Source: Eledone cirrhosa (Eukaryota). Taken from it: DNA of 64,000 nucleotides. Shown piece after piece: positions 225-45,395 of the stretch. A program made the translations under genes and the position numbers. Location: positions 308,512,001 to 308,576,000 of the forward strand of contig OZ024740.1 in the NCBI GenBank assembly GCA_964016885.1, read 5' to 3'. The first letter of the stretch is position 1. Each line of letters begins with the position of its first letter. The notes under the pieces were generated by a model that was given only the letters and a program-made list of their open reading frames with translations, did no database searches and was not told the origin of the DNA.

Positions 225-305
225 AAGACTAGAACTGTTTCATTCGAAGGAAATGTATTGAGTACTTTACTCACCGTGGTTACCCCCGTTTGAACACGGG
301 ACTCA
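225..305 (-). mobile_element. Short TA-flanked element, family C (hairpin-GGTAACCAC-GTACTCAATAC)
   Basis: The minus strand reads gagtCCCGtgttcaaaCGGGggtaaccacggtgagtaaaGTACTCAATAC. Related copies lie at 4073-4135(+), 14890-15010(-) and 15570-15658(-). Confidence 0.55.
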
Positions 306-609
306 TATATATATATAATATATATATGAGAGAGAGAAGAGAACATGAGACTGTGGTAACAGCAGAGGCAGTAAAAGGAAGGAGCAGTGGTGTTATCTCC
401 AGAGAGAGAGAGAAACAGCACCAACAGAACAGTATTGAGTGCAATACACATAAGAGATATGTAATAAACGGTAACGGCAATAGAACATCATGAAGAAGAG
501 AGAAAGAATGAAAAGACGAGTGAATAAGTGTAGAAGAAAGAATGTTAGAGTGAAAAGACAAATGGTGACTCTAACAACAACAACCAAGAGTCCGAGTCAG
601 CGAGTAAGC

Positions 610-3466
610 TTCTACATAGTTGTTTGATATGCTAGAAATAGCTGCCAAATCTCCATTAAATCGCACCTATCGGCTTTAAAATAAGTGTGGGGGAGGGGCA
701 GATTCGATAATGTAGTCGTAGATACACTCAAAAAGACGGGATAGTCACGGCTGGAATATCTTTGATCATAGATCTGCTAAACATTAATCACCAGTAGTAA
801 TATTGATAGGAATTGCTTAAATAGTTAATAGTGGCATTGCAGACAGTCTGTCTCTCTCTCTTATATATATATATTTGTGTGTGTGTGTGTGTGCGTATGT
901 CTGGGAGGGTGTGTGTGCATACTATATAATGTATAACAAGACATGAAAGCGACCGTGCCGCCAACATTCCTTAATAGAAACAAAAACAATAAGAGAGAGA
1001 GAGAGAGAAAGAACTAGAAAGATTAACGTTACCAGCTCCTACAACAACAAAACTAACAAAAGACAAGCCACCAACGTTTTCCAACGTCACTAAAACCATG
1101 TAACACTGATAATATTAATAGCTAATAATAATTTTCATTATTTTTATTATTATTTTATATAATAATTAATCAATACGTGAATGAAGCGAATAAGTAGGTC
1201 CCCAATGATTAAACATTGGATTTCGACATTTGAAAAATAAAAAAAGCCATAAAAGATTTCCACGAAAAATCCATAGACACGACGAAATAGCATTTTAATA
1301 CATAAACCTTCATTGATTTTTGGTTGAAAGTTCTTTATATATATACATATTTTATCATTTTTCCAGGATTTCTCTTGTATTCAAATTTGTTTCATTAATC
1401 TATTATAAATTATATATAAATTACACACACACACACACACACATATATACACACAGACGCACACACACGTGTGTGTGTGTATATATATATATATATATAT
1501 ATATATATATATATATATATATATATATGTGTGTGTGTATATATATAAATACACACATATGTGTGTGTGAGCAATTTATGTAGATAAAATATATCAAAAA
1601 GAGTAACAAAGCAAGAAACTTATAAGATTACAACAGAGAGGCGAAGATTAACAACAAATATTACTACTGCTGCTATAACAACAACAACTACTGCTGCTGC
1701 TGTCGCCACTGCTGCTGCTGCAATACAACTATTAGTAGTAATATTACTACTACCGCTACCACATCTAGAAGTAGTGTAAGAGCAATAGTAGCAGCAGCAA
1801 CAAGAAGCAGAAGGGTCTTTAGTGTGCGTGTGATAAAGGACAGCTCCAGTAGTAAAATAAACATAAGAAGAACACTAGTAATAACGATTTGAACATTTGT
1901 AATAACTACAACAGTAGCATCAACAGTAGTAAACCCCTCCAGTCACTGTTTTAACAACCATCACCGCCCTCTTTTTTTGGCTTACTAAAAACAACCCGAC
2001 ATTATGCCTGAAAATATAACTGTGTCCGAATTTCTACGGGAGACGTGGGACGATTACCATTCGCCGACCACCTCTACCTTTGTTTCAAGAATGCCTCTCT
2101 GCAAAAATACCATCTCTGGCCTGGAAGAGGTAAGCAACTACCACCACTACCATTACACTATCATTACTACCGCATTATCACCATGCACATTTTACCACCA
2201 TCAACAACAACAACGAGCTAATGAACGAGTCTCTATGTGGTCGTTCCTCCTGTTAGAAAGAGCAGCTAATTTTCCCTCAATTTTCTCCCCTACTGTCTTT
2301 CCCAATGCAATTCATACATTAGATAATATAGTGGTACATACACATAAAGGCAAGATGATCATGGCTAGAATGTCTTTGATCATAGGTCTACTCCATCGGA
2401 GTTGACTTGGAGCTGAACAACAGCCATACAACTACTACCAGTAACAACATAACAGTACATCTCTATTATTAATAGTTATTACTCGTACTATATTAACACT
2501 ACAATTCATTCCAAACTACAACAGTATTACTATCATCAATAACTACTACAACCAAGATACTACCGCCACTTATGACATAAAATATCGTTATCATTAATAC
2601 CGCCAGTACATTACTACTACTACTACTACTACTACTGAACACTACACCACACTGATAAAACTACATAACACAACCACCAACACTATCTTACAATCACACT
2701 ACAACATAACTACAGCACAATCACCAATGCTACGTCACAACCACCGCCACACTTCAAAACTCAACATTACTACCATACAACACAAATTTTTTTTAGAGCC
2801 TCGATCTGCTAGAAATGGTTGACAAATTTTCCTCAAATCACACACCTTAAAAGAAAGGAAGGGCACATTGTGTGATGTAGTCCTGGGTAAACTATGTCTG
2901 AATATGAGACGGGATGGTCACAGCTGGAATGCACTTAACCAGAGGTTTCCTCGATCACGACTGACTTAGGGCTAAGCAACAACAAAAATTTCCCCAAATG
3001 TTGTAAATTAGAAGGGACACATAAAATGATGTAGTCAGAGATTACACTGTGTCCGAAAAGAAAGAGGGGATGATCACGGCTGGAAGGCTTTTGATCATAG
3101 ATCTGCTCAATTAGCCCCGATATGGGGCTAAACACTAACCCTACTACACACTATAACATCCACTAGCACTACCACACAACTGCTGCCGCAGACGTCAACC
3201 TTGTTGTATACTACAACGTATATCACCACTAACACTGCCACACGAGCGTAACAGATCATATACGTGGTCGCTGAAGCTGCTACAAATAGCAGTCAACTTC
3301 TTATAAATAACATCCTACCGTCTTAAAATAGGAAGGACACATTTGTTAATGTAATCCTTCACATGAAAAAAAACGAACAAAACAAAACAAAAAAAAAACG
3401 GGTGATTATGATTGGAATGCCTTTGATGAGGGTTGACCCAAGACTAGACTGCGACAACAACAACAA
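610..3466 (+). repeat. Cluster of five 5'-truncated copies of a SINE-like repeat (about 610-780, 2228-2425, 2800-2985, 2990-3140, 3265-3466)
   Basis: Shared body 'ctgctagaaatagcagccaaat..ccctcaaatc...gggatggtcacggctggaatgcctttgatcatag.tctgct...gctaaacaacaac'. The same body occurs at about 33780-33900, 47632-47735 and 58455-58655. Confidence 0.75.
2004..2129 (+). CDS. ASAP: First coding exon of an ASAP-family Arf-GAP (ArfGAP with SH3, ankyrin repeat and PH domain; start of the N-terminal BAR region)
   Basis: Translates to MPENITVSEFLRETWDDYHSPTTSTFVSRMPLCKNTISGLEE, which closely resembles the ASAP2/Drosophila Asap N-terminus as I recall it (MPDQISVSEF..ET.EDY..PT.SSF..R...CRNT...IEE). Homology ends exactly at a strong phase-0 donor, GAG|GTAAGC (2130). 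The rest of ORF 2004-2405 is intron read-through. Confidence 0.92.
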
Positions 3467-4149
3467 CCTTACTATACAGCTACTCCCACCAACACTGACA
3501 CTCAACTACTAACCCTATTACACAACCACATCCAACAACACTACCATACAAGTACTTTCAGAAACTGACCTTACTACACAACCACCAACACCACTATGTA
3601 ACTGACCTTAGACCTTATCTAACATACAACAGCGCCCCCATTTCCCCAATCACACTAATTAATATAATTATCCACAGGTGGGTTTGATAGGTTGTTGGTG
3701 TTTAATGGTGGTTTAATGTCTGTATTGTTATACAATTATTTATTATTAAACAATTATCATTGTACAACTATTTCTGAAATGTGTAACATATCTGCTTTAT
3801 GTATCTGAATATATTTAATGAGTGAGTGAGTGCTTGTATTTAATTGTTGTTTATACATCCCCCCCCACCTCCCCCCTCTCTCTCTCTCTCTCTCTATATA
3901 TATATATATATATATAAAAATAAAGAAAAACATCATTTCAGAAGGTAAATATTTATTGTACTGCTGGGATTATACTGTCGTACTACTCTGAGTTTTGCGA
4001 ATGTCGCTGGTCACGTTACGTGATTTAGCAAAATGCGAGAATATATACGAGTACTTTATATATATATATAATGTGTGAGCCCCTGGTTCATTCGGGGGGT
4101 AATCACTATAAGGTACTACTCAATAATACATTAGTAGAGTGTATATATT

Positions 4150-4345
4150 TATATACATATGTATAAATATGCATATACATATGTATAAATATGCATATAC
4201 ATATGTATAAATATGCATATACATATGTATAAATATGCATATACATATGTATAAATATGCATATACATATGTATAAATATGCATATACATATGTATAAAT
4301 ATGCATATACATATGTATAGATACACATATACATATGTATAGATA
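4150..4345. repeat. 22-bp minisatellite (TATACATATGTATAAATATGCA)n
   Basis: About 8 direct tandem units visible. Confidence 0.9.
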
Positions 4346-4570
4346 CACATACACATATATACATACAAATGTATGTATGTATATATATATATATACACAC
4401 ATATATATGTGTGTATGTGTGTGTATATATTCATATATGTGTGTGTGTGCATAGACATACACACACACACGAGCTGATACTTGTGAAAATTTCTTGATCT
4501 AATTAGAAACAACCACCAAGTATTAAAGATCAATATAATATTTTCAATGTTTTATTTATAGTTATTTATC

Positions 4571-44287: not shown

Positions 44288-44625
44288 TCATCATCATCAT
44301 CATCATCATTTTACGTCCGCTTTTTCCCTGCTTGCAAGGGTGGGACGGGAACTGATTCTAGCTTGATTTCTACAGCTGGATGCCCTTCCTAACACCAACC
44401 TCATTTACAGTGAGTGCTGGGTGTTTTTTTGCCGTGGCACCCCCACGACCACTTTGCAGTGGAATGATAGGGACCCCAGTCTCTATCATCTCATTTCTAC
44501 AGCTGAGTAAACAGGAGCAATGTGAAATAAAGTGTCTTGCTCAAGGAAACAACACATCACCCGGTCTGAGAATTGAACTCACAACCTTTCGATTGCAAGG
44601 CCAATGCTCTAAGCCATGTGCCGCC
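44288..44625 (-). mobile_element. tRNA-CORE-like SINE with RTE-derived tail
   Basis: Near-identical to 49746-50089 and to the reverse complement of 52604-52943. Confidence 0.88.
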
Positions 44626-44849
44626 ATATATATATTGGTAAACGGAAAAGAAAATGCTGACAAATTGTTCCCAGTGAAAAATAGTTTAATTAGGAATAAG
44701 TAAAAATTAGTAATAGTATTGGTTAGTATTCAGTTTTGGTTTTAAGTTTTACCGGTTGCGCATTTCTAATGCTTTTCAAAAATAATTTTGAGATAGAGCG
44801 CCCGTGATGTTTGCTCTAATCTGAACATATATATATACATATACATTCA

Positions 44850-45000
44850 TTCATTCATTCATTTTATTAAGGCTAAATATTGAGTTTTGTTGCTCTGGAG
44901 TTTTGCCTGTTTATCACAGGGTCATCAGACAAAATCTTGTTGCTTTTAAAATTCTACTACGGTATTGAGTACTCTTTTCTCTCAGCTGTCAACCACATAC
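44850..45000 (-). mobile_element. Family A ~150-bp element: GTACTCAATAC, hammerhead, AATAAA
   Basis: Motif at 44962-44972, hammerhead at 44885-44934, then ccttAATAAAatgaatgaat. Confidence 0.78.
44885..44934 (-). ncRNA. Type-I hammerhead ribozyme motif (this copy mutated)
   Basis: TTTTGT-CTGATGA-cCCTG(tgataaa)CAGGc-aAAA-CTCcAGAG-cA-ACAAAA gives a 6-bp stem I and the canonical CUGAUGA. Sister copies supply GAAA, CTCTAGAG and TA. Confidence 0.75.
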
Positions 45001-45009
45001 AGATATATA

Positions 45010-45395
45010 TATATTATAAAGAGTTGGGACCCGAGGGCAAGAGCTTAGCCATCAGGTCCTGACTCCTTATAATAAAACCATACTCTACTACCCCAAGTAT
45101 CAAGTACTTGGATGATATATATAATGAAATTATTGTGTACAGTGCTCAGGTGCACTACAACTCATCAAAGGTGCATGTATAGTACATAGAATAATGTACA
45201 AATGTCAGGAAAATGAACAGTGTATGAGTCATGATATAATAATAATAATAATAATGAAATATTGTGTACAGTGCCCAGGTGCACCACAACTCGTCAAAAA
45301 GTGCATGTACAGTACATAGGGCAATGCACAAACATCAGGAAAATGAACAGTGCACAAGTCATGGTCTAACCAGTTTTAAACTCATTCTATCCTGA
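45010..45395 (-). mobile_element. Family B element interrupted by two tandem ~115-bp units
   Basis: 45010-45108 and 45360-45395 match the reverse complement of 13481-13623. Units at about 45121-45233 and 45251-45363 carry (ATT)n tails on the minus strand. Confidence 0.7.

Follow-up and report, generated by a model that had tools for sequence, protein, structure and literature searches.

Short hammerhead-bearing elements beside microsatellites in Eledone cirrhosa as probable 3'-end fragments of Penelope-like retrotransposons

Introduction

Penelope-like elements (PLEs) of the Hydra clade are targeted to (TA)n tracts and carry canonical hammerhead ribozyme motifs (HHRs), in which stem III is often ACTC/GAGT (Craig et al. 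2021, PMC8557442). Also inverted truncated copies of PLEs, their tails and a Hydra family of Octopus were reported in that study, and the open reading frames (ORFs) of the clade have the motifs RWK, DKT and CxCx5C and are without CCHH (PMC8557442). The present study deals with short elements, many of them with an HHR, that adjoin microsatellites in the genome of Eledone cirrhosa. The elements are situated in a window of 64,000 nucleotides, i.e. the whole stretch of DNA analysed (contig OZ024740.1, positions 308,512,001 to 308,576,000), and positions given below are those of the window.

Minimal HHRs of PLEs have U3-A8 cores and stems III that are palindromes, one additional base precedes stem II, and the activity as dimers is low (Cervera and de la Pena 2014, PMC4209133). 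Some are paired on opposite strands 100-700 bp apart, and most single motifs have been taken as truncated PLEs (PMC4209133). The priming of PLEs is poorly understood; one element, PAc Poseidon of the anole Anolis carolinensis, has been reconstituted in vitro (Frangieh et al. 2024, PMC11167929). In this element both target strands are cut and extended, two internal start sites of the reverse transcriptase (RT) bound the tail, and uncleaved RNA is the template. Retrozymes, for their part, are defined by tandem HHR units yielding circular RNA (Cervera and de la Pena 2020, PMC7229834; bioRxiv 10.64898/2026.07.22.740005).

Results

Tails of the short elements

About 15 short elements were counted beside microsatellites in 225..45395 (Table 1), in agreement with the original prediction of about a dozen. 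They were assigned to families A, B, C, D and F and to tail-only pieces. Element arms and repeats were found by masked self-BLAST. The elements are probably dead 3'-end fragments of abortive insertions by autonomous PLEs; for families B and C and the tail-only pieces, these PLEs would likely belong to the Hydra clade. Judged from their sequences, these groups match the 3' end of Hydra-clade PLEs, family B by both the HHR and the tail, and family C and the tail-only pieces by the tail. The Penelope link of the original prediction was right, and it is narrowed for these groups to one clade.

The tail contains the 11-nt motif GTATYGAGTAC, present in eight copies in the window against 0.09 expected, and three decayed copies added by their context bring the tail sites to 11. 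A microsatellite of at least four units begins within 60 nt downstream of six of the eight exact copies and nine of all 11 sites, compared with a background of 8.9%; one of these microsatellite-adjacent sites ends in (GA)n, not (TA)n. The motif is part of a hairpin situated 30-50 nt before the microsatellite; it makes up the 3' strand, and the hairpin has a TT bulge. At least six of the eight Watson-Crick pairs with the upstream sequence were formed in seven of the ten window sites tested and in 7.3% of random flanks, and the majority letters of sequencing contigs at 14738 and 14940 (G>T) bring back the pairing. The motif is common to families B, C and the tail-only pieces, which contradicts the earlier view of the families as unrelated in sequence.

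The same hairpin was present in tails outside the window, where 94.8% of the cells were paired and one pair was changed on both sides in three sequences (n = 11, relatedness uncontrolled). By an anchored script, which also gave the Watson-Crick pairs of the window sites above, G-C is the outer pair of eight of nine outside tails and A-T that of seven of ten window tails. By eye, 4-8 nt separate the shorter 3' end from the start of the hairpin, both in families B and C and in four outside families. The Hydra-2_Amil consensus, too, contains the motif, which differs there at one position and lies about 55 nt past the HHR (PMC8557442).

Two further stretches resemble parts of the tail. At 37057-37192, an exact tail motif is on the minus strand; near it, the plus strand has another stretch resembling the motif, together with a terminal hairpin and (TA)n. 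About 8 nt past the end of the shorter arm, the tail of family D (18130-18160) starts with GCTCTG, a sequence like that of the 5' strand in the conserved hairpin; a matching 3' strand is absent, and family D may be a decayed Hydra-type end.

Fold-back anatomy and repeat status

The four long palindromic copies of the original prediction were all recovered as fold-backs, together with two short ones in family C (Table 1), and in all six the tail is present on one end only. The motif is present on a single arm in families B and C, where it follows the HHR, so each element consists of an inverted arm ending about 30 nt past the HHR and a forward arm running into the tail. Families A and D have the same arm asymmetry with different tails. 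The junctions are in complementary sequence. The arms meet in stem II in the family B fold-back (14800) and in the presumed stem II in that of family C (42818); the two short C copies are joined in stem III, and in family A, by contig majority letters, the junction is in a short palindrome. The three B and three A copies of the window each have different 5' ends or junctions. Fixed-length terminal inverted repeats (TIRs) with a constant target site duplication were not seen in the elements, the arms being unequal and the junctions variable, in contrast to the TIR element at 20383-20824.

The original prediction had also likened the elements to retrozymes. Type I HHRs in non-coding repeats of 100-400 bp would suit scattered monomers of non-LTR (long terminal repeat) retrozymes spread via circular RNAs, and such monomers can be dispersed (bioRxiv 10.64898/2026.07.22.740005). 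However, no HHR units were found in head-to-tail tandem in 12700-45700 of the window, and the paired HHRs sit on opposite strands, so that a single transcript could not be cut twice into unit-length RNA. The tail and the inverted anatomy are, moreover, features of PLEs (PMC8557442), and a retrozyme origin is considered highly improbable.

Matches to 13480-15200 were found in about 15,000 sequencing contigs per run (two runs, one sample), concentrated on the elements. Over the B, C and A elements the summed depth was mostly 10^4 to 9x10^5; the tail-only piece had less, and several flank bins had 0-34. Summed contig depth is not a copy number, and these comparisons are qualitative only. The short elements are hereby confirmed as repeats. 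In family C the summed depth drops from the tail to the HHR (91,695, then 44,403, then 11,144). The family B fold-back is rare at its centre (100-370 versus 68,034). Both findings fit truncation from the 3' end.

Hammerhead motifs

The strict type I HHR descriptor gave three matches, all in family A (14487+, 14407- and 17670-), against 0.045 in 200 block shuffles. Stem II of this family is altered on both sides between copies (GCAG/CTGC versus GCAT/ATGC). The relaxed descriptor gave seven matches against 2.0+/-1.4, maximum 6, in 60 shuffles. Six of the seven are within the described elements, the additions being 44779- (A), 17846- (D) and 15969- (F), while the match at 22209 looks like chance. 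With the relaxed descriptor, the motifs of families D and F are therefore not individually significant; that of D is a probable HHR.

In family B the 44857-45003 copy has the full core with two point changes, and in each run about 200 loose-end contigs extend into the same 5' half. Only the 3' half of the HHR was found in family C, in which the 5' core was not seen. The five families with an HHR or its 3' half named in the original prediction therefore stand as type I HHRs near the 3' end in A, B, F and probably D, and as a 3' half in C, with the reservation on D and F given above. Stem III, earlier held to be self-complementary in every family, is palindromic and unstable in A, D and F. In family B the majority form is non-palindromic: at 14786, CTCCAGAG makes up 96% of the summed contig depth and the palindromic CTCTAGAG is a minority, and also the 44885 copy reads CTCCAGAG. 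Stem III of family C forms a 5-bp hairpin within the monomer (-6.0 kcal/mol).

The Rfam scan of the window included no hammerhead family among the 150 matches listed of 209, and on the palindromes it matched microRNA models below the threshold. When the HHRs were folded as single strands, the z-scores ranged from -1.0 to -0.1, except for the self-complementary centre of family C, and thus gave no support.

Related loci and ORFs outside the window

Loci outside the window were picked from metagenome contigs on a Hydra-clade-type HHR alone (at least 120 loci). At least 136 pattern matches were obtained, of which 25 failed the stem filters and 111 passed; ten without 80 nt of flank were dropped, leaving 101 evaluable. 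Among the matches listed, to which also the other counts of outside loci refer, the tail motif was found 45-70 nt after the HHR in 36 of the 101, elsewhere in four and nowhere in 61. Of 14 loci with opposed HHRs, 12 could be scored: the tail was on exactly one arm in 11 and on both arms in none. A covariance model built from 11 outside loci only ranked the family B fold-back first in the window (E 0.002), and the described elements occupy many of the next ranks, none significantly. The fifth-ranked match (18297-18458, plus strand; E 0.16) is one more element flanked by (TA)n, and its Hydra-type HHR is decayed, with a 1-nt loop on stem III and a degenerate 5' core.

In five loci (L073, L001, L032, L019 and L089) an ORF is on the same strand as the HHR, and its C-terminus lies 110-190 nt upstream. 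The tail is also present in L073, L032 and L019, the order in L073 being ORF, HHR, tail motif and (TA)n; the tail motif and hairpin are thus common to the window elements and ORF-linked Hydra-clade ends. The full ORF of L057, P0001 (714 aa), has the motifs RWK, DKT, YRDD and CxCx5C, and a second protein, P0002, has CxCx5C; both adjoin an HHR and a tail of the shared type, and the absence of CCHH was judged by eye. P0001 had no Pfam match and no PDB sequence match. It had 2,524 homologues, one of which (P0007) carries a GIY-YIG Pfam label, and its predicted model (pLDDT 90.6) had telomerase RTs as the top four PDB fold matches, which supports the RT part only. The identity of P0001 follows from these motifs, homologues and fold. 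In L057 (311-3260), an HHR, a tail and (TA)n are directly upstream of the intact Hydra-type ORF, which is followed by a partial tandem ORF copy.

These loci bear on whether the elements could be miniature inverted-repeat transposable elements (MITEs) of DNA transposons or Helentron-type pieces in which the HHR motifs are incidental. A sub-terminal repeat and a 3' hairpin are Helentron-type features. The palindromic shape, the short sub-terminal motif followed by a terminal hairpin, the AT-rich targets and the roughly two relaxed descriptor matches per shuffled window agree with such an origin. Against it stand the unequal arms, the one-sided tail and the variable arm length inside a family, the outside loci carrying the motif behind an HHR and an ORF of a telomerase-like RT, and, for the HHRs themselves, the excess of strict descriptor matches and the compensated stem II of family A. 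The Helentron reading of the sub-terminal motif was dropped when the motif was found behind PLE ORFs. This explanation, including the ordinary TIR MITEs that the original prediction named as its refutation, is already largely refuted and retains hardly any probability.

The ends of outside copies were mapped for two families, F1, the largest, and F2. The 3' ends of F1 are at two points, 29-36 nt (47/64) and 97-101 nt (14/64) past the pattern match. The true 5' ends are clustered, 36 of 40 in F1 lying within 16 nt and 21 of 22 in F2 within 12 nt upstream of the HHR core, a clustering that is inflated by the selection on whole HHRs and by copies cut at contig ends (28/68 in F1 and 6/28 in F2). 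The reference for the 5' ends of F2 was L059, with L028 set aside because it is itself a fold-back. At the fold-back junctions of L013, L035 and L096, short patches copied from nearby arm sequence suggest templated end-joining.

Clustered 5' ends would also be expected if some families were true non-autonomous PLE derivatives, with short copies transcribed into RNAs of about 150 nt that have an HHR and a tail, and with PLE proteins inserting these RNAs anew in trans. The junction common to two C copies points in the same direction; insertion in vitro is possible without a full pseudo-LTR (PMC11167929), and retrozymes have been traced to PLE pseudo-LTRs in a 2026 preprint (bioRxiv 10.64898/2026.07.22.740005). 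On the other hand, the inflation of the 5' clustering weakens the first of these points, the outside fold-back junctions differ and have short templated patches, and the ends differ among the B and A copies of the window. Sequences of F1 and F2 are, furthermore, also attached to ORFs: families giving tiny fold-backs were found with an ORF in L032, L019 and L089 and, by eye, in L059. As the same outside family occurs in both forms, a radiation mobilised in trans is unneeded, and the diverse non-autonomous radiation of the original prediction was overstated. Non-autonomous derivatives are accordingly regarded as rather unlikely.

Origin of the elements

In the mechanism proposed for the PLE fragments, the GIY-YIG endonuclease of the element would cut both strands inside a (TA)n tract, and the RT would prime on the uncleaved RNA at two internal sites. 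The first would be about 30 nt past the HHR and the second about 70 nt further, the stretch between them being the tail. Both complementary DNAs (cDNAs) would mostly stop within or just upstream of the HHR and be joined at complementary ends, often an HHR stem or a short palindrome, giving a fold-back with the tail on one arm. Either two short cDNAs would anneal at the junction or one would snap back, and stops before the HHR would give tail-only pieces. Annealing and snap-back of this kind recall the twin priming of L1 and templated end-joining. The two 3' end points, the intact HHRs within copies and the opposed arms fit the scheme of the anole PLE, by analogy with which the cutting and priming steps are proposed. 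The joining step is likewise presumed, as are any activity of the ribozymes and the existence of parent ORFs in this genome.

It is also conceivable that Hydra-clade PLEs have in common a deeply conserved tail hairpin (RCTCTRC, loop, GYA, TT bulge, GAGY), situated a few nucleotides 3' of the proximal RT start, and that this is an RNA handle positioning the two start sites of the telomerase-like RT. The folded HHR might then be an RT stop and joining site regardless of cleavage, and units of about 150 nt with the HHR, the tail and all cis signals might be mass-produced and re-mobilisable in trans. This extension is put forward tentatively, as a possibility rather than an expectation.

Several observations weigh against a PLE origin or its Hydra-clade part. 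Families A, D and F are without the complete tail motif; they were therefore not placed in a clade, and their PLE origin rests on the HHR type and the anatomy. The termini that the original prediction expected beside ORFs do flank them in outside relatives (with a tail in L073, L032 and L019), and no ORF was linked to the window's own families within the window and the contig stretches matching 13480-15200. No Hydra-type ORF was detected in the window by tblastn with 122 proteins (best E 0.017), as the original prediction had stated for Penelope ORFs. The exact motif copy at 37069 has neither the hairpin nor an adjacent microsatellite and was excluded from the elements. The tail hairpin was no more stable than shuffles in two of three tails folded, only one of 34 covariance-model matches had an E below 0.05, and the family A pattern gave no matches in viral contigs. 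Furthermore, the two short C copies have one common junction, and five listed contigs per run have opposite-strand joints at 13599-13601, which also a replicating folded master would yield.

Elements and other features of the window

Table 1. Positions and anatomy of the short elements.
Element	Position	Strand	Arms	HHR	Tail	Microsatellite and remarks
Tail-only piece	225..304	+		possible short inverted 3' remnant at about 225-242	motif 255, terminal hairpin; upstream hairpin weak (3/8 Watson-Crick pairs)	followed by (TA)n
Decayed tail-only piece	4071..4140	-			kin to 253-299 and 15604-15650 by eye	ends at (TA)n
Family C	13480..13635	-	short inverted arm and forward tailed arm joined at stem III; fold-back 13563-13621		motif 13538	ends in (GA)n
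Family A fold-back	14311..14653	+	14313-14579, 93% identical	U3-A8; 14487-14516 (+), 14407-14378 (-)	about 75 nt, right arm only	(TA)n on either side
Family B fold-back	14688..14861	-	14745-14860, joined in stem II	3' halves on both arms	on one arm, decayed motif 14728	microsatellites on either side
Tail-only piece	14905..15006	+			hairpin with motif 14947, terminal hairpin	degenerate TA tract
Tail-only piece	15566..15659	+			motif 15606	flanked by two (TA)n tracts
Family F	15851..16010	-		minimal, 15969-15942; extra A before stem II, G10.1-C11.1, CG at stem III, stem I of 2 bp		3' end at (TA)n; only 3' boundary defined
Family A single arm	17578..17712	-		17670-17641	none	ends at (TA)n
Family D fold-back	17709..18218	+	17709-18123, about 85% identical over aligned part	probable, 17846- and 17986+; U3-G8, U-U at base of long stem II, CTGCAG stem III	about 95 nt, right arm	
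Family B	24287..24428	+	inverted arm and short forward arm	most of it, on inverted arm (minus strand)	on forward arm, motif 24387	(TA)n on either side
Family C fold-back	42681..42873	-	42758-42873, 95% identical, joined in presumed stem II	3' halves	on one arm, motif 42737	
Diverged family A relative	44730..44812	-		44779; compensated stem II, GCAA replacing GAAA		
Family B	44857..45003	+	inverted arm	complete (CTGATGA 44928-44922, minus strand)	motif 44962	
Family C short fold-back	45014..45104	+	45014-45072; stem III junction as in the 13480 copy		shortened, motif 45097	

The window has a GC content of 32% and abundant (TA)n tracts, with an interrupted (TA)n satellite of about 8 kb at 4580-12600. 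Among the listed ORFs of the window, two of which were scanned with Pfam, the sole RT ORF belongs to a long interspersed element (LINE) at 53062-55224 (RVT_1 E 2.4e-32, with a PHD-like finger), in which a single stop near 54601 breaks the frame. The LINE is presumably of RTE type, and related fragments were found by masked self-BLAST at 39080, 41717-42218, 48276 and 49223. At 32943-33260, a frame of 105 aa resembles the C-terminal part, with the endonuclease, of a non-LTR element of the restriction-like-endonuclease type.

The TIR element at 20383-20824 starts with TACGAGGG, has TA on both ends and a third, internal TIR copy at 20646, and is similar to a mariner-type derivative. A palindromic element with TTAA borders and termini starting with CCCTTT occurs at 51077-51564 and 59884-60098 and is similar to a piggyBac-type MITE. 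Short perfect-ended hairpins without an HHR core or the tail motif are present at 20870-20942, adjoining (TA)n, 34231-34300 and 40834-40947, and may be fold-backs of other PLE families. A family of 340 bp resembling short interspersed elements has copies at 44290-44626, 49746-50095 and 52599-52943 (94-95% identical), with a tRNA-like part at 52611-52674. Masked self-BLAST also detected a 97-bp inverted duplicate, 40093-40189 versus 42286-42382 (100% identical). The 5S rRNA match of the Rfam scan at 58327-58443 exceeds the gathering score (57.6 versus 38 bits) with its stems broken, and is likely a pseudogene or a 5S-derived repeat.

Discussion

The overall pattern has already been published, and the elements therefore do not form a new system. 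Their features match those described in PMC4209133 and PMC8557442, which indicates that they work like, and partly are, the known debris of PLE insertion. In the literature searched, Repbase, Dfam and subscription papers being outside the search, neither the tail hairpin nor the 5'-truncation hotspot just upstream of the HHR was found to have been described, and the part of PMC8557442 consulted does not mention the tail hairpin.

The tail motif allows palindromes and fragments of 70-150 bp at (TA)n to be annotated as ends of Hydra-clade PLEs, when they would otherwise be unclassifiable or be read as MITEs or microRNA-like hairpins. Together, the tail hairpin and the truncation hotspot offer two precise, mutable RNA features for probing how a telomerase-related RT chooses its start sites, and they also bear on the role of the HHR if its cleavage is dispensable.

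Comparison with known systems

The elements resemble non-LTR retrozymes in being short non-coding repeats with a type I HHR and in their proposed PLE origin, and differ from tandem retrozymes in being solo or inverted (PMC7229834; bioRxiv 10.64898/2026.07.22.740005). With the minimal HHRs of metazoan PLEs (PMC4209133), they share the U3-A8 core in family A; in family F a palindromic stem III, G10.1-C11.1 and the additional nucleotide that precedes stem II; and the dual motifs on opposite strands among mostly single truncated copies. In contrast to those HHRs, stem III is longer and not a strict palindrome in families B and C, and stem II of family D is about 60 nt.

Similarities were also found to Hydra-clade PLEs (e.g. 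Hydra-2_Amil and Hydra-1_Obim; PMC8557442): the targeting of (TA)n, the type I HHR near the 3' end, the ACTC/GAGT stem III, the U-U at the base of stem II in several families, and the inverted 5'-truncated copies with a tail at one end. The window copies differ in being without an ORF and in having a tail of about 70 nt instead of the 30-40 nt quoted for PLEs, and their HHR sequences, compared by eye, differ from that of Hydra-1_Obim. PAc belongs to a different clade, and its tail is inside the start of the ORF, with priming in an AC-rich stem-loop (PMC11167929). In common with PAc, the elements have AT-rich targets, two putative RT start sites bounding the tail, here proposed from sequence data, and an HHR that has been copied intact, which means that the template was uncleaved.

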